From assembly GCF_002854065.1 (NCBI RefSeq), contig NZ_CP024147.1: a stretch of DNA of 64,000 nucleotides, one strand, 5' to 3'. The notes beneath the pieces were generated by a model that was not told the origin of the DNA, searched no databases, and saw nothing but the letters and a program-made list of their open reading frames with translations. A program made the translations under genes and the position numbers. The DNA comes from Escherichia coli (GTDB lineage Bacteria > Pseudomonadota > Gammaproteobacteria > Enterobacterales > Enterobacteriaceae). Positions 10,563 to 50,191 of the stretch are shown in pieces. Numbering within the stretch: position 1 is the stretch's first letter; each line of letters begins with the position of its first letter.

Positions 10563-10584
10563 ATGTTACCCGTATCATTCACAT
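10563..10584 (+). promoter_or_regulatory. Putative GntR operator in the gntT promoter region
   Basis: ATGTTACCCGTATCATTCACAT shares the ATGTTAC half-site with the palindrome upstream of gntK. Confidence 0.3.
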
Positions 10585-10738
10585 GAGTACCAAACATACC
10601 CCTGACATCTGACTACAATAATTAGTTTTAGTGGGTATCAGTCGTGGTGCCGCAATATCTCTGTTCCCGATTGGGATAATTAGAGTTTGTCGTCAGAAAA
10701 TTGACGTTACCCATAACAAATGAAAGGCCAGGTAAATC

Positions 10739-12055
10739 ATGCCATTAGTCATTGTTGCTATCGGTGTAATCTTGTTGTTGCTCCTGATGATCCGCTTCAA
10801 AATGAACGGCTTCATCGCTCTCGTCCTCGTGGCGCTTGCTGTTGGATTAATGCAAGGAATGCCGCTGGATAAAGTTATTGGCTCCATCAAAGCCGGTGTC
10901 GGCGGGACGCTCGGTAGCCTTGCCCTGATCATGGGTTTTGGCGCAATGCTGGGCAAAATGCTGGCAGACTGCGGTGGCGCACAACGTATCGCCACCACGC
11001 TGATTGCCAAATTTGGTAAAAAACACATCCAGTGGGCGGTGGTACTGACCGGTTTTACCGTTGGTTTTGCCCTGTTCTATGAAGTGGGCTTTGTGCTGAT
11101 GCTGCCGCTGGTGTTTACCATCGCGGCTTCTGCGAATATTCCACTGCTGTATGTTGGTGTACCAATGGCAGCTGCACTGTCTGTGACCCACGGCTTCCTG
11201 CCACCGCATCCGGGTCCGACTGCGATTGCCACCATTTTCAATGCCGATATGGGTAAAACCCTGCTGTACGGTACTATTCTGGCAATCCCGACCGTGATTC
11301 TCGCCGGTCCGGTTTACGCTCGCGTGTTGAAAGGTATCGATAAGCCGATCCCGGAAGGTCTGTACAGCGCGAAAACCTTCAGCGAAGAAGAGATGCCGAG
11401 CTTTGGCGTCAGCGTCTGGACCTCTCTGGTGCCGGTAGTGCTGATGGCGATGCGTGCGATTGCCGAAATGATCCTGCCGAAAGGTCACGCTTTCCTGCCG
11501 GTAGCGGAGTTCCTCGGTGACCCGGTAATGGCTACGCTGATTGCCGTGCTGATTGCGATGTTCACCTTTGGCCTGAACCGTGGTCGTTCAATGGATCAGA
11601 TTAACGACACGCTGGTTTCTTCCATCAAAATCATTGCGATGATGCTGTTGATCATCGGTGGTGGCGGTGCGTTCAAGCAGGTGCTGGTAGACAGCGGCGT
11701 GGACAAATACATTGCTTCCATGATGCACGAAACCAACATTTCTCCGCTGCTGATGGCCTGGTCGATTGCTGCCGTACTGCGTATCGCGCTGGGTTCCGCA
11801 ACCGTTGCGGCAATCACTGCGGGTGGTATCGCGGCACCGCTGATTGCAACGACGGGTGTTAGCCCGGAGCTAATGGTTATTGCGGTGGGTTCCGGTAGTG
11901 TGATTTTCTCTCACGTGAACGATCCAGGCTTCTGGCTGTTCAAAGAGTACTTTAACTTGACTATCGGCGAGACCATCAAGTCCTGGTCGATGCTGGAAAC
12001 CATTATCTCGGTGTGCGGTCTGGTAGGCTGTCTGCTGCTGAATATGGTGATTTGA
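10739..12055 (+). CDS. gntT: High-affinity gluconate transporter GntT (438 aa)
   Basis: 438-aa polytopic ORF MPLVIVAIGVILLLLLMIRFKMNGF..., GntP family. Confidence 0.95.
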   Translation: MPLVIVAIGVILLLLLMIRFKMNGFIALVLVALAVGLMQGMPLDKVIGSIKAGVGGTLGSLALIMGFGAMLGKMLADCGGAQRIATTLIAKFGKKHIQWAVVLTGFTVGFALFYEVGFVLMLPLVFTIAASANIPLLYVGVPMAAALSVTHGFLPPHPGPTAIATIFNADMGKTLLYGTILAIPTVILAGPVYARVLKGIDKPIPEGLYSAKTFSEEEMPSFGVSVWTSLVPVVLMAMRAIAEMILPKGHAFLPVAEFLGDPVMATLIAVLIAMFTFGLNRGRSMDQINDTLVSSIKIIAMMLLIIGGGGAFKQVLVDSGVDKYIASMMHETNISPLLMAWSIAAVLRIALGSATVAAITAGGIAAPLIATTGVSPELMVIAVGSGSVIFSHVNDPGFWLFKEYFNLTIGETIKSWSMLETIISVCGLVGCLLLNMVI

Positions 12056-43512: not shown

Positions 43513-44715
43513 TTACCTGAACTGATAATGACCTTCGCCCAATCGGATAACCCTTCCCTCTTCTTCTGCGCGGTTCAGCCACACACTAATTTGTTCGATG
43601 GTTAAACCAGTACAAGACGCCAGCCTTTCAATACTTATCGATTCCTTTGCAAGGATCGCCAGTTCCGCCACAAAGAGTTGATAAAAATCGACAGGCGTAT
43701 ACGCGGGCATTACTGCGTAATTTGCGTCATCTTCATGCAGCGAAAACAGTTCTGGTTGAGCGTTACGGAGTGCTCTGTCATACATCAGCCCAGGAACGTC
43801 TGGCAGTCTGATCGTCACATTCTCAGCCTGTTCAGCACTCCATGACGCCCCATTTTCTACTAATCGTGAATTGGCTGATTGCATATCCTGATTTGGTTTA
43901 ACCTGCACAGGCAGCCACTGATGTTTTAATGCCTCCATCGCCCCGGTTATCGTTCCACCGGTCATTCCCGCACGTACAACCATTGCGCTTTCAGCAAGGC
44001 AATAAATATATTTATTTCGCGCCATCGCATTGCCGACGGTGAAACGTACCTCTGGGTAAAACGGCGAAATCAACACCAGGTTGCCTGCTATAAGCCCTTC
44101 ACGCCATTTCACTAACGTACTCGTTTTTAACAAGCTATCAGCTAATACGCCAACGGCAGTTCCCCCGGCCTCCAGTACCGACGCCATTGCACATTCATCA
44201 ATACCTCGCGCACCACCAGAGATAACGCAAATCCCCTGTTGGGCCAGTTTCGCGGCCAGTTGTTGGGTATAGCGCAAATCGTCAGTCGGAGCATCTCGCG
44301 AGCCAACAATCGCCATACCTTCCGCTTGCAGTAATGCTTTATTCCCGCAGCCAAATAAAACGGGAGGTGCATCCGTTCGCAATCGGTTTTTCAAGCGAAC
44401 GGGATAATCAGCATCTCCGCGGGTTAAGATCCATAAACCGGCGCGTTGCCACTTATCTACCGCCAACGCCAGACTATGACCACGCGCCAGCAAGCCAAGA
44501 ATACGCTCCTGAGAAATACGCGGATCGCTCCAGCCTGTAAGTTTCTCTTGCGGTTGCGGCACCAGAAGCTCGGCGGGACTGATACGTTGGTGCTTCAGCC
44601 ATAATGCAAACTTCCCCCATTCACTATTACTAAGAGGTTTATACTCACTCGCCGCCGCGCGAGAAAAATCGCTGGTTAGCAGGAGAGTTGCTTGTGCATT
44701 GGCTGAAAGATTCAT
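43513..44715 (-). CDS. DprA/Smf-like Rossmann-fold protein (about 400 aa), candidate antitoxin of a PsyrTA/ShosTA-like module
   Basis: ORF 43513..44808; DprA signature MAIVGSRDAPTDDLRYTQQLAAKLAQQGICVISGGARGIDECAMASVLEAGGTAVGVLADSL; start favoured at MNLSANAQ, whose ATG overlaps the upstream TGA (ATGA-type coupling). Confidence 0.75.
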   Translation of the reverse strand: MNLSANAQATLLLTSDFSRAAASEYKPLSNSEWGKFALWLKHQRISPAELLVPQPQEKLTGWSDPRISQERILGLLARGHSLALAVDKWQRAGLWILTRGDADYPVRLKNRLRTDAPPVLFGCGNKALLQAEGMAIVGSRDAPTDDLRYTQQLAAKLAQQGICVISGGARGIDECAMASVLEAGGTAVGVLADSLLKTSTLVKWREGLIAGNLVLISPFYPEVRFTVGNAMARNKYIYCLAESAMVVRAGMTGGTITGAMEALKHQWLPVQVKPNQDMQSANSRLVENGASWSAEQAENVTIRLPDVPGLMYDRALRNAQPELFSLHEDDANYAVMPAYTPVDFYQLFVAELAILAKESISIERLASCTGLTIEQISVWLNRAEEEGRVIRLGEGHYQFR

Positions 44716-46822
44716 CAATTTTTTACCGAGGTAGAAGCAAGGGCAAGAGGATAAACCGTCGGGCAACCTGCCTGGCGTAACAGTGCTGTCAGAACTGTCA
44801 GCGTCCATGCAGAATCCACGATATCGTCAACCAGCAACGCCGGACCAGGCATCAAAGGAGGGGTAATCACAAACGCCCCGTCGAGATTTTGACACTGGTG
44901 GAAACGGTTTTGCTGCATTTTCTGCGGTGGATTGTCCACGACTTTTTCAATGGCATCAATAATAGGTAAGCCAAGTTTCGCCGCCAGTCGCCGGGCAAAA
45001 TCAGGAACCAGGTCGAGGTGCTTTAATGAAGGAACGCAGCATACCCAGGTTGGTTCAGGATGCGGATTCCAGCGTTGGCGAACCATTTCCGCACATGCCT
45101 CCACCAGTTCATCACTGAATCGCCCCGTTTTTTTCTCCTGTGCTACCTGCTTTCCCCACCCGGAATCTCCCCAACGAGAAAGGATTCGCCCCGTAGATCC
45201 TTGTAAAATCGCAGGCAAGTTCCCTTTAAATCCGTATTGCGTAAAAGCCCCAGCTGCCACCTGTTTATTGAGATTTAATGACAGGTCAGCGTGTTTAATA
45301 AATAAGTTTGCCGCATGGAGTAAGCCGCTATCAATGTCGGGCGACAACAACGGATGCTGAAGACAACTGCTACATTTACCACAATGTTCGGCACCTGGCT
45401 CATCGAGTGCGCGGCGCAGAAATTGCATTTTGCACTCCTTGGTCGTGATATAGCTTTCAACGTCTGCCAGCTCACTTTTTCTCTGATTCATCAAATGGTT
45501 AATTCGTTCATGGTCAGGAGAAAAACTGACAATTGTTCTGCGCCATAATTTCTCGGTATACACCACAGGCGATGGATTTTCAGCTACCAATAATTTCAGT
45601 GCTTTTTCTATTTGCCCATAACGGAGATTCGTCCGTTGTTCAATGCCTCGTAAGGTAAGACCGTCATTCACGCTAAGTACGTTGAGTATTTCATGAATTT
45701 GCGCCTCCGCAGGAAAGGCGCTTTCACGGAAGAATTTATGAATAGCACGGTCTTCACTGCCGCAAAGCAGTATGCCAACAGCAGAATCGATACCGCGACC
45801 GGCACGCCCCACCTGTTGGTAGTAACCAACTATCGAACCTGGCATCTGGTAATGAATAACAAACCCCAAATCCGGTTTGTCAAAGCCCATTCCCAGCGCC
45901 GTTGTCGCAACCAGCACTTTAATTTTATTTGCCAGCAACGCCTGCTCCAGATATTCCCTGGCAGTATTAGAATCTTCCGCGCCTTCACAAGTCACGCCGC
46001 TGTAGTAAGCAAATGCACTGATACCATTTTTCCTTAACCACTCGGCGACAAGTTCGGCATCGCGAGTAGTCAGGGTATAAACAATTCCCGATTTGGAAAA
46101 CTGAGGGAAAACTGAGGGATAACCGTTGCTAACCATGCCAGACGGGATGACTGTTCACCTAAGACTAAGGCATCAAGCGCCAAACTTTCGCGAGCCAGCG
46201 TTCCACGCTGAATCACAATGTCACCCAATTGCTGACGGATATCCTCAACGACACGGTTATTCGCTGTCGCGGTTGTACCCAGAACAGGGGTATTCGCAGG
46301 TAGTTGGCGCAAAATATCTAATATACGTCGGTAATCCGGGCGAAAATCGTGGCCCCAATCAGAGATGCAGTGCGCCTCGTCGACCACAAGCAAGCCAATA
46401 TGATCGGCTATAGGATATAAAACCGTTTCGATAAAGTCCTGGTTTGCCAAACGTTCCGGGGAAACCAGCAAGCAATCGACCTCACCTTGCAGCAACTTAT
46501 CGCTAATGCGCTGCCATTCTTCTCTGTTTGTAGAATTCAACGTTTCAGCCGTAATACCTAACCGTTCAGCGGCGGCAACCTGGTTACGCATCAGGGCAAG
46601 CAAAGGAGAGATGATAATTGTCGGGCCAGCGCCGCGATCGCGGAAGATTTTACTGGCGATGAAGTACACAGCACTTTTCCCCCAGCCAGTGCGTTGGACA
46701 ACCAGCAGTTTTCGCCGTTGGTTCACCACCGCGTCTATGGCTTCCCATTGCCCTTCCCTGAAAGTAGCGGTGGTATTTCCTAACATCCGCTGTAAAAGCA
46801 ATTCAGCTGCGTGCTTTTCCAT
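44715..46822 (-). pseudogene. RecQ-like helicase fused to a C-terminal PRTase domain (PsyrT/RqlH-like toxin candidate), frameshifted by an 11-bp tandem duplication
   Basis: ORF 46070..46822 has helicase motifs I-III (QRTGWGKS, VVDEAHCISDWGHDFRPDYRRI, GTTATA); ORF 44715..46136 in another frame has helicase motifs IV-VI (YQQVGRAGRG) and a PRTase motif (LLVDDIVDSAWT); deleting one repeat copy at 46096..46117 joins them into about 698 aa. Confidence 0.75.
46095..46119. repeat. 11-bp perfect tandem duplication (GAAAACTGAGG x2) inside the helicase gene
   Basis: Forward ...tttgGAAAACTGAGGGAAAACTGAGGgat...; on the coding strand both frames read PQFS across the copies. Confidence 0.9.
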
Positions 46823-46924
46823 CTTTATCTCCTGCGATCTTTAGGCAGTGATTAGAACGGATTATTTGCAGGTAAATTTGCGAGAGAGATCAAAAAGATG
46901 AAGAGAGGAGAAAAGAGAAATGAA

Positions 46925-46948
46925 TTACTGCGAGCAAGCTCGCAGTAA
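46925..46948 (-). terminator. Hairpin downstream of gntU (candidate terminator)
   Basis: TTACTGCGAGC-aa-GCTCGCAGTAA perfect inverted repeat, then TTCATTTCTCTTTTCTCC on the minus strand; sits between the gntU stop and the helicase start. Confidence 0.5.
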
Positions 46949-46961
46949 TTTGTCGCAGTAA

Positions 46962-48302
46962 TTAACTCAACAGCTGGAACGCAATCATCCCAACGATGGC
47001 ACCGACAGTGCCGAGGATGGTTTCCATCATGGTCCAGGTTTTCAGCGTTTCGGCTTCGGTCGCGCCGGTAAATTTACCGAACAACCAGAAACCAGCGTCG
47101 TTAACGTGGCTGACAACAATCGAACCACCGGCGATACAAATCGACAGCGCCGCCATTTGCGCACCGGAGTAGTTCAGTTGTTCAATAACCGGCATCACCA
47201 GTCCCACCGCCGTTAAACAGGCAACGGTTGCAGAACCCTGAATGATGCGCACTGCAGCGGCCAGCACGAAGCAGGTGATGGCAATCGGCAGGCCCATGCC
47301 GGTTAACGCTTCGCCCAGTGCCGGACCTACGCCAGAGTCAACCAGCACCTGTTTGAACACGCCGCCCGCACCAATCACCAGCAGAATGATCCCCGCCGGT
47401 TGCAGCGCGTGACCGCAAATATCCATCACTTTGTCTTTTGGCATGCCCTGACGCATTGCCAGGCCATAAATCGCTACCAGACAAGCAACCAGAATCGCGG
47501 TAAACGGATGACCAATAAACTCGAACCATTCGTAAGCGGTAGAGCCTTCCGGCACAAAACGCGCGGCAATGGTTTTCAGCCCCACCAGCACCAGCGGCAG
47601 CAGGATCAGCGACAGGCTGAATCCGAAGGACGGCATTTTGCCTTCGCCGAGATGCGGCTCGCTGATGTCGTCAGGAATATGCAGCTCAACGTAACGGCTG
47701 ATGAAGTTACCCCACAGCGGCCCGGCAATAATCATTCCCGGAATTGCCGCACACAGGCCAATCAGGATCATCCAGCCAAAATCGGCGTTCATCTGCGATG
47801 CCAGCAGCATTGGCGCTGGCCCAGGCACCAGGAACGCCGCCGCGGCCGCCACGCCTGCGAATAATGGGATTACCAGCTTCACCAGGTTCGTACCGGTGTG
47901 GCGCGCCATTGAGAAAGCAACGCTAATCAGCAGAACAATCGCCACTTCAAAGAACAGCGGTAGCGCACAGACCAGCCCCGCAAGGCCGATGGCATAATGC
48001 GCGCGGCTGTGACCGAAGGATTTGAGCATTTTGACGGCAATCTGATCGACTGCGCCGGTTTCATGTAAGATCTTGCCAAACATAGCTCCCAGGGCGACAA
48101 CCACCGCCAGGAAGCCGAGGGTGCCTCCCATCCCTTTTTCCATCGTCGCTGCGATTTTATCGAGCGGCATACCGGAAAAAAGGCCAGCCCCCATGGACAC
48201 CACCATTAAAGCCAGGAAAGCGTGCATACGCGCCTTCATGACTAAAAACAGCAGCAGTAAAACAGACCCTACTGCTGTTAAAACAAGCGTTAATGTAGTC
48301 AC
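46962..48302 (-). CDS. gntU: Low-affinity gluconate transporter GntU (446 aa)
   Basis: 446-aa polytopic ORF MTTLTLVLTAVGSVLLLLFLVMKARMHAFLALMVV..., GntP family. Confidence 0.95.
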   Translation of the reverse strand: MTTLTLVLTAVGSVLLLLFLVMKARMHAFLALMVVSMGAGLFSGMPLDKIAATMEKGMGGTLGFLAVVVALGAMFGKILHETGAVDQIAVKMLKSFGHSRAHYAIGLAGLVCALPLFFEVAIVLLISVAFSMARHTGTNLVKLVIPLFAGVAAAAAFLVPGPAPMLLASQMNADFGWMILIGLCAAIPGMIIAGPLWGNFISRYVELHIPDDISEPHLGEGKMPSFGFSLSLILLPLVLVGLKTIAARFVPEGSTAYEWFEFIGHPFTAILVACLVAIYGLAMRQGMPKDKVMDICGHALQPAGIILLVIGAGGVFKQVLVDSGVGPALGEALTGMGLPIAITCFVLAAAVRIIQGSATVACLTAVGLVMPVIEQLNYSGAQMAALSICIAGGSIVVSHVNDAGFWLFGKFTGATEAETLKTWTMMETILGTVGAIVGMIAFQLLS

Positions 48303-48305
48303 TAC

Positions 48306-48833
48306 TTATTTGCCTTTTTTAATAACCTCAATGGTGCTTGCCACAACACCTTCCAGCGGTTGATCGATATCCACCACCAGTACATCGGTTTCGTCCGCAC
48401 CCGGCTCCTGCAGCGTTTCAAACTGCGTCACCAACATTTGGGTTTTAAAGAAATGGCCTTTGCGCGCTTTCAGGCGGCTTTCAATCACATCAAAATCGCC
48501 TTTCAGGTAGATGAAAGAGAGATTCGGATTACCTTCACGCAGCAAGTCGCGATAGTGTTTTTTCAATGCAGAACAGACGATCAGTGACACTTTATTAGTG
48601 CGCTGCATAGCAAACGCGGCGTCGTTCAGCGCCTGCAACCACGGTTTGCGATCGTCGTCATTCAGCGGTTCGCCAGACGCCATTTTTTCGATATTGCGCC
48701 GTGGATGGAGGAAATCGCCATCAAGAAACGCGGCATGAAGTTGATGCGCCACTTCACTGGCGACCGCAGATTTGCCGCTGCCCGATACGCCCATCAAGAC
48801 GTAAATGTGGTGATCATGGTTAGTCGTGCTCAA
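48306..48833 (-). CDS. gntK: Gluconokinase GntK (175 aa), apparent TTG start
   Basis: ORF 48306..48854; product recognised from (M)STTNHDHHIYVLMGVSGSGKSAV; the codon at that start is TTG. Confidence 0.88.
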   Translation of the reverse strand: MSTTNHDHHIYVLMGVSGSGKSAVASEVAHQLHAAFLDGDFLHPRRNIEKMASGEPLNDDDRKPWLQALNDAAFAMQRTNKVSLIVCSALKKHYRDLLREGNPNLSFIYLKGDFDVIESRLKARKGHFFKTQMLVTQFETLQEPGADETDVLVVDIDQPLEGVVASTIEVIKKGK

Positions 48834-48863
48834 AGTGGTGCCCCCACAATACAAGAATTAAAA

Positions 48864-48893
48864 AATGTTACGGGTAACTGTTATCGGTAACAT
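48864..48893. promoter_or_regulatory. GntR operator-like palindrome upstream of gntK
   Basis: AATGTTACgggtaactgttatcgGTAACATT with outer inverted repeat ATGTTAC/GTAACAT, about 30 bp upstream of the gntK start. Confidence 0.55.
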
Positions 48894-48972
48894 TCTCCGG
48901 CCGGACAATATCAGAAGCAATATCCATCCGTGCCTTAAGTGTATAAGTGTGAGCTACTTCAAATTTGTGGGC

Positions 48973-49968
48973 TTAAATAGATCCGCCCGGTGACAAGGTG
49001 AAACCTAAATCTAACATTTTCGGTGTCACAGATTCGCCACGAATACGCGCCAGAAGGCGTTCAGCGCCAATACTGCCCATCCGCTCACGCGGCGTCAGCA
49101 CGCTCGCAAGTCGTGGCTCCATCACCTGACCAATGTCATGACCGTGGAAACCGGCAATCGCCATATCGTCAGGAACTTTTAACCCCAGACGCTGACATTC
49201 AAACGCCGCGCCGACCGCCAGATCATCATTAGTACAGAACACGCCATCCAGCTGCGGATATTCCCGCCGCGCCTGGCGAATCAGTTCAATACCGGAAGAG
49301 TAAGAAGAAGATTGCTCAACCATCACGCTATACGGCACCAGGCCTGCATCCAGCATCGCCTGTTCGTATCCCTTCTGTTTGATGATAGTACGTTCGTCGA
49401 GACGTGCGCCGAGATAGGCAATATGGCGATGCCCGCGAGCAATAATGGCGGTGGTCATCTGGCGTGCCGCTTCAAAGTTATCAAAACCGACGGCGATATC
49501 GAGGCACGGCGACTTGCTGTCCATCAGTTCCACCACGGGAATACCCGCCACTTCAATCATCTTTAAGGTGCGCGGCGTGTGCGTACGTTCAGTGAGGATC
49601 AGGCCGTCGATATTCCAGGAGAGCATGGATTCGAGGCGTTCTTGCTCCATTTCCGGTTTATAACCGTAGTGGGCCAGCATGGTCTGATAACCGTGCGCGT
49701 CGGTGACGCTTTCGATTCCGCGTAATACTTCCGCGAAAACCTGGTTGGTGAGAGAAGGTAACAGGACGCCAATCGCCCGGCTGGTGGCGTTAGAGAGGAT
49801 ATCGGGCGCACGATTGGGAATATAGCCCAGTTCATCAAGAGCCGCGGCAATCTTGCCGCGTAGAGCGACGGAAACCTGCTCCGGGTTGCGTAAAAAACGG
49901 CTGACCGTCATTTTGGTCACGCCTACACGGTCAGCCACATCCTGAAGTACGGGTCTTTTCTTTTTCAT
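48973..49968 (-). CDS. gntR: LacI-family gluconate repressor GntR (331 aa)
   Basis: 331-aa ORF MKKKRPVLQDVADRVGVTKMTVSRFLRNPEQVS... (HTH plus periplasmic-binding-like fold). Confidence 0.95.
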   Translation of the reverse strand: MKKKRPVLQDVADRVGVTKMTVSRFLRNPEQVSVALRGKIAAALDELGYIPNRAPDILSNATSRAIGVLLPSLTNQVFAEVLRGIESVTDAHGYQTMLAHYGYKPEMEQERLESMLSWNIDGLILTERTHTPRTLKMIEVAGIPVVELMDSKSPCLDIAVGFDNFEAARQMTTAIIARGHRHIAYLGARLDERTIIKQKGYEQAMLDAGLVPYSVMVEQSSSYSSGIELIRQARREYPQLDGVFCTNDDLAVGAAFECQRLGLKVPDDMAIAGFHGHDIGQVMEPRLASVLTPRERMGSIGAERLLARIRGESVTPKMLDLGFTLSPGGSI

Positions 49969-50191
49969 CGTCCTGAAGGTACAAAAGAGATAGATTCTCT
50001 TAGTTTAACACGGACGCATCAGAACCTTCCCGGGGAAAACAGTGCTTGTTTACAATTATTAGATATACACTAAATCAATTGCATCGCATTGTGCTAACGA
50101 CGCGGCAAAACCCCGGAAGCGTACATCAGCACGCGACCGGAGCGAGCGAGGAAGCCTGCAAAAAGGCAGGCTTCAAAGATGCCGTTGAGTT

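Follow-up and report, generated by a model that had tools for sequence, protein, structure and literature searches.

A UUG start codon generally lowers translation initiation. In Escherichia coli, UUG accounts for about 3% of starts, and reporter measurements place AUG, GUG and UUG in one group, with expression at 10-100% of that from AUG (bioRxiv 10.1101/063800); the K-12 annotation listed 81 UUG starts before TetRP (PMC4909307). The closest described counterpart of the gene studied here is gntK of K-12 (b3437; GNTK_ECOLI; PDB 1KNQ), which encodes the thermoresistant GntI gluconokinase of 175 residues and belongs to the GntR-repressed gntKU operon. Its thermosensitive GntII paralogue, idnK (gntV), is a member of the same GntK/IdnK-type family.

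We analyzed a stretch of 64,000 nucleotides of E. coli DNA (NZ_CP024147.1), which we call the window. The window encodes the same GntK protein as K-12 in a 528-nt coding sequence that begins with the same TTG, and it shares with K-12 the gene order and the GntR operators; it differs slightly from K-12 in the leader, and it adds a frameshifted helicase and dprA beyond gntU. The TTG start of gntK is already known, as a long-standing curated annotation, and is ordinary. An earlier note on this DNA had proposed that gntK begins at the TTG at 48833..48831 (minus strand), just before the residues STTNHDHH. We find that the curated annotation, a Shine-Dalgarno (SD) sequence, the switch to ATG in orthologues, the coding signature and its boundary, and the alignment to the family model all agree on this codon, and we therefore take it as the start of gntK. 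With high confidence, we infer that in vivo translation starts at this UUG by ordinary SD-led initiation.

The gnt locus and its control region

Three open reading frames lie on the minus strand between 46962 and 49968, and in matching RefSeq and K-12 genomes they are annotated as gntR (48973..49968), gntK (48306..48833) and gntU (46962..48302). The three have a match at 95% identity or more in all but 2 of the 5426 complete E. coli genomes. The gntK coding sequence, which encodes a GntK/IdnK-type gluconokinase, consists of 175 codons plus the stop codon TAA (48308..48306); RefSeq strains and K-12 b3437 have gntK annotated with identical bounds. Gluconate kinase activity is predicted from the identity of the product to the crystallized E. 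coli enzyme.

In strains with 100% identity, the locus is flanked by yhhW and by a frameshifted RecQ-family helicase. In the window, we noted two overlapping RecQ-family/DEAD-box helicase reading frames just 3' of gntU (44715..46822, minus strand), which the annotation of an identical strain treats as one frameshifted pseudogene, followed by dprA. In a second identical strain, the helicase is interrupted by IS5. K-12 has neither the helicase nor dprA at this place, and yhgN directly follows gntU.

Two GntR operator half-palindromes, offset by 13 bp and overlapping (48866..48892, minus strand), lie ~30-60 nt upstream of the gntK start; they match the pattern TGTTAC-N3-TAACA at 48866..48879 and 48879..48892 in the gntK promoter and leader. 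This pattern occurs 7 times in the window, compared to 0.64 expected, and the operators at gntK are conserved in most species; the overlapping arrangement in E. coli gntKU has been described (PMC4052901). By eye, we read a putative sigma-70 promoter of gntKU at 48892..48920 (minus strand), composed of TTGCTT (48920..48915), a 17-nt spacer and GAGAAT (48897..48892). A consensus promoter scan did not flag a promoter for gntK. Other species have a conserved equivalent of the -10 element, GACAAT, next to the operators. Upstream of the promoter is a CRP-like site, TTTGA-N6-TCACA (48948..48963, minus strand), with one mismatch to TGTGA-N6-TCACA; it is the sole such match in the window, but 1.8 would be expected by chance. 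The putative promoter and the CRP-like site may both be functional.

Two differences in the leader were noted in the comparison with K-12. The T-run that follows the GntR operators is one T longer in the window than in K-12 (L002, 2620..2660), and the putative -10 element of the window reads GAGAAT, where K-12 and most other species have GACAAT. We also noted GntR-operator-like sites at 10564..10577 and 10705..10718, upstream of a reading frame for a GntP-family protein of 438 amino acids (10739..12055, plus strand). From its position, this is a putative gntT.

The start codon of gntK

The TTG at 48833..48831 (minus strand) reads directly and in frame into AGC ACG ACT AAC CAT GAT CAC CAC, which encodes STTNHDHH, and the in-frame leader up to and including this codon reads TAA TTC TTG TAT TGT GGG GGC ACC ACT TTG. 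We compared four candidate starts: the upstream TTG at 48854 (48854..48852), the TTG at 48833, a TTG at 48797 and the ATG of Met14 at 48794 (48794..48792). Pairing with the 3' end of 16S rRNA was found for the 48833 codon only, and for none of the other three. The SD is GGGGG at 48841..48845 (minus strand), 7 nt before the TTG, with a predicted anti-SD duplex (GGGGGC) of -8.4 kcal/mol. The initiation region was less structured than shuffled controls (z = +1.55), and an Rfam search of 46800..50100 gave no match at E <= 1. By itself, the TTG triplet is at chance level; its conservation and context exceed chance.

The proposed course of initiation is a conventional one. The 30S subunit would pair with the GGGGG (48845..48841), which would bring the UUG 7 nt downstream into the P site, and the initiator tRNA would read UUG with a mismatch at the first position, such that formyl-methionine is inserted. 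Ser at position 2 leads us to expect, by the usual rule for methionine aminopeptidase, that this methionine is removed and that the mature protein begins STTNHDHH. Initiation at this UUG would probably occur at a lower rate than at an AUG.

Curated annotation agrees with this codon. The earlier note had proposed a comparison with curated gntK starts, and this comparison bears out its reading: both K-12 b3437 and the RefSeq strains annotate a 528-nt gntK coding sequence that begins with the same TTG. Three forms of the protein are nonetheless found in public records. The 175-residue form, from the TTG at 48833, carries the name GNTK_ECOLI and is found on at least 1000 contigs, and the K-12 protein record, now in its second version (NP_417894.2), has 175 residues. 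A 162-residue form, from the ATG at 48794, is found on 998 contigs and bears the K-12 name 'ORF_f162', the original K-12 call. The 182-residue form, from the TTG at 48854, is found on 25 contigs and is annotated in a few O157:H7 records. In contig-level gene calls, the unsupported 162-residue form is nearly as common as the curated one.

Family models place the start at the same residue. The equivalog model NF008583 of NCBIfam scored 373.6 bits (cut-off 265), with GntK residues 1-174 aligned to positions 1-174 of a 177-position profile; the subfamily model TIGR01313 scored 241.7 bits (cut-off 113.75), with an alignment that begins at GntK residue 11. GntK passes this subfamily model, but it scores only 184 bits against the idnK model NF007336, below the equivalog cut-off of 304. 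The idnK equivalog lacks the STTNHDHH segment of GntK, and its alignment begins at residue 10; idnK itself is not present in the window. The crystallized chain of 1KNQ is identical to GntK residues 2-175, has Met as its residue 1, and aligns from 1-175 to residues 8-182 of the open reading frame, such that it begins at the 48833 codon; this chain mirrors the cloned construct, however, and so does not map the start independently.

No entry for gntK or b3437 was found in the supplementary tables of TetRP (PMC4909307) or TRAINSPOTTER (PMC13245402), which is unsurprising, because gntK is repressed without gluconate. A full-text literature search, whose scope lay outside the primary gnt papers, returned nothing on the gntK start site. 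The N-terminus of purified GntK was reportedly sequenced by Izu et al. in 1996, and UniProt P46859 is likewise said to record it, with the initiator methionine removed.

The comparison of orthologues was based on 80 species-level genomes of Enterobacteriaceae, which we fetched with peptide patterns that excluded the start codon. The codon aligned to the gntK start is TTG in 77 of these species and ATG in the other three (Yokenella regensburgei, Trabulsiella odontotermitis and a Buttiauxella; L035, L051 and L073), and the ATG codons trace to two independent T-to-A events on the gntK gene tree. When orthologues exchange one start codon for another at a fixed position, this is a classical mark of a true start. 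Downstream of this codon, the sequence evolves as a protein: in codons 2-13 across 81 sequences, we counted 17, 7 and 72 changes at the first, second and third codon positions, with third positions accounting for 72 of the 96. In contrast, the 30 columns upstream change fast and without periodicity, except for the SD core and the C at -2. Within the SD, the G at -10 is invariant and positions -11, -9 and -8 are nearly so (81 sequences), and a purine-rich SD is present at the same distance in all 80 species. We also noted that the C at -2 (48835, minus strand) is present in 81 of 81 sequences; its neighbors in the leader changed 8-13 times on the tree.

Two other starts have been annotated. Translation from the upstream TTG at 48854 would yield a protein of 182 residues, extended by MYCGGTTL. 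This TTG is a legal start codon, it lies in frame after the TAA that closes the frame upstream (48858..48860), and it would probably be within the mRNA if the promoter is indeed TTGCTT-17-GAGAAT. The earlier note had read an in-frame ATG at 48854, but the codon is TTG; the program that listed the reading frames prints M for any start. The extension, given in the note as MYCGGTT, would read fM-YCGGTT-L. The upstream TTG has no SD within 20 nt upstream, however, and the SD that serves the 48833 start falls inside the putative extension. Moreover, the frame is not conserved. Related species carry the upstream TTG at -5, -6, -7 or -9 codons, outside the frame, or not at all; the majority have none in frame, and in Citrobacter amalonaticus (L009) a 1-nt deletion shifts it out of frame. 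Indels in the leader are not multiples of three among species, and in 36 of 81 sequences the conserved codon (TTG, but ATG in three species) is the first in-frame start after the preceding stop. The columns that would encode the extension show no third-position periodicity, and the alignment to the family model starts with the residue at 48833 rather than within the extension. These comparisons come close to refuting a start at 48854, to which we give next to no credence.

In frame and 13 codons downstream of the TTG at 48833 lies the ATG of Met14, which is the closest ATG and the one chosen by gene callers with a preference for ATG. The statement in the earlier note that no other in-frame ATG lies nearby overlooks this codon. 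Initiation at Met14 would yield the 162-residue protein, and it too lacks an upstream SD. Because codons 2-13 evolve as translated sequence, Met14 is not the main start. In addition, both family models begin before Met14 (NF008583 at residue 1 and TIGR01313 at residue 11), and the K-12 record now has 175 rather than 162 residues. The region lost would include residues 10-14, a hydrophobic strand (I-Y-V-L-M; I/V at the first position) that directly precedes the Walker A loop G15-S22 (G-V-S-G-S-G-K-S; GxxGxGKS), and both M14 and G15 are invariant in the 81 sequences. We take this strand to be the first beta strand of the P-loop kinase fold, which a start at Met14 would delete. With the comparative data strongly against Met14 as the main start, we consider it very improbable that the 162-residue protein is the principal product. 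Met14 may give rise to a minor internal-start proteoform alongside the product of the TTG at 48833, which we retain as the start of gntK.

The gntU start and its relation to gntK

The earlier note had suggested that a non-ATG start would leave the kinase poorly translated compared to the co-transcribed transporter. This part of the proposal does not survive inspection of gntU, which likewise begins with a non-ATG codon, a GTG at 48300..48302 (minus strand), 3 nt after the gntK stop; the family model NF007781 aligns residues 1-446 of its product to profile positions 1-446. In an unbiased tabulation of 81 sequences (the window and L003-L082), the gntU start is GTG in 62, TTG in 19 and ATG in none. 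No well-spaced SD of its own precedes gntU. In most species, the stop codon of gntK and the start codon of gntU either share bases (TAGTG or GTGA) or are separated by 3 nt, and because of this close spacing the sequence suggests that gntU is translationally coupled to gntK rather than independently loaded.

Within the first 50 nt of gntU, across codons 9-21, lies a terminator-like hairpin (48277..48252, minus strand) with an 11-pair stem followed by CTGTTTTTAG, which we list as a possible attenuator. Codons 16-19 of gntU (CTG CTG CTG TTT) had 4, 0, 1 and 1 changes at their third positions, whereas the median for the remainder of the gene was 15. The hairpin could act to attenuate transcription between the two genes, or its conservation could merely reflect a preference for CTG codons. 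Attenuation between gntK and gntU has reportedly been described in the gnt literature. Given the GTG start, the missing well-spaced SD, the likely coupling and the early hairpin, transporter output should, if anything, equal that of the kinase or fall below it.

Selection on the weak starts and comparison with known systems

We considered that the non-AUG starts of gntK and gntU might be actively maintained, such that they cap or balance the output of gntKU or the ratio of its products. Several observations are in line with this idea. TTG is kept at the gntK start in all but three of the 80 species, gntU has GTG or TTG in every one of the 81 sequences, and the putative gntT, a GntR-regulated transporter of the same regulon, has an ATG start, unlike both gntK and gntU. 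The T of the gntK start codon changed only 2 times; at 48 fourfold-degenerate sites the median was 14.5, and only 2% of these sites are equally slow. However, if only transversions are counted, 21% of the fourfold sites change as rarely as this T and the excess conservation is not significant; this is the fair comparison, since the viable changes from T (to A or G) are transversions. Furthermore, in the three species with ATG the SD is among the weakest observed (-6.5, -6.5 and -5.8 kcal/mol, compared to the commonest value of -8.4), a direction that fits the compensation between SD and start codon found by Belinky et al. (PMC5622118). This comparison rests on two independent events, though, and in roughly 30 of the 78 sequences with TTG the SD is just as weak; moreover, selection generally favors AUG, and selection on start codons is weak (PMC5622118). 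Thus, maintenance of the two weak starts by selection is a tentative idea, for which the odds are somewhat unfavorable; selection for the weak gntK start in particular is possible, but we do not claim it.

If that idea were true, the output of the kinase and the low-affinity transporter would be capped, or their ratio fixed, rather than the weak starts being merely tolerated. The presence of non-AUG starts in both genes of gntKU makes the operon a small, testable case of possible start-codon tuning. Beyond this, the start of gntK matters mainly for the quality of annotation and for little else. Its non-ATG codon splits public annotation among proteins of 175, 162 and 182 residues, of which the 175-residue form alone is supported, and the TTG at 48833 is the start to use for cloning and modeling of GntK and for engineering of gluconate and Entner-Doudoroff flux. 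Replacement of this TTG with ATG would be expected to raise expression of gntK.

To our knowledge, no autoregulatory role has been described for the start codon of gntK. The AUU codons of infC and pcnB are non-canonical starts, and the TTG of gntK is not of that kind. Instead, gntK resembles the other UUG-initiated genes of E. coli, in that a canonical, SD-led start takes place on a near-cognate codon.
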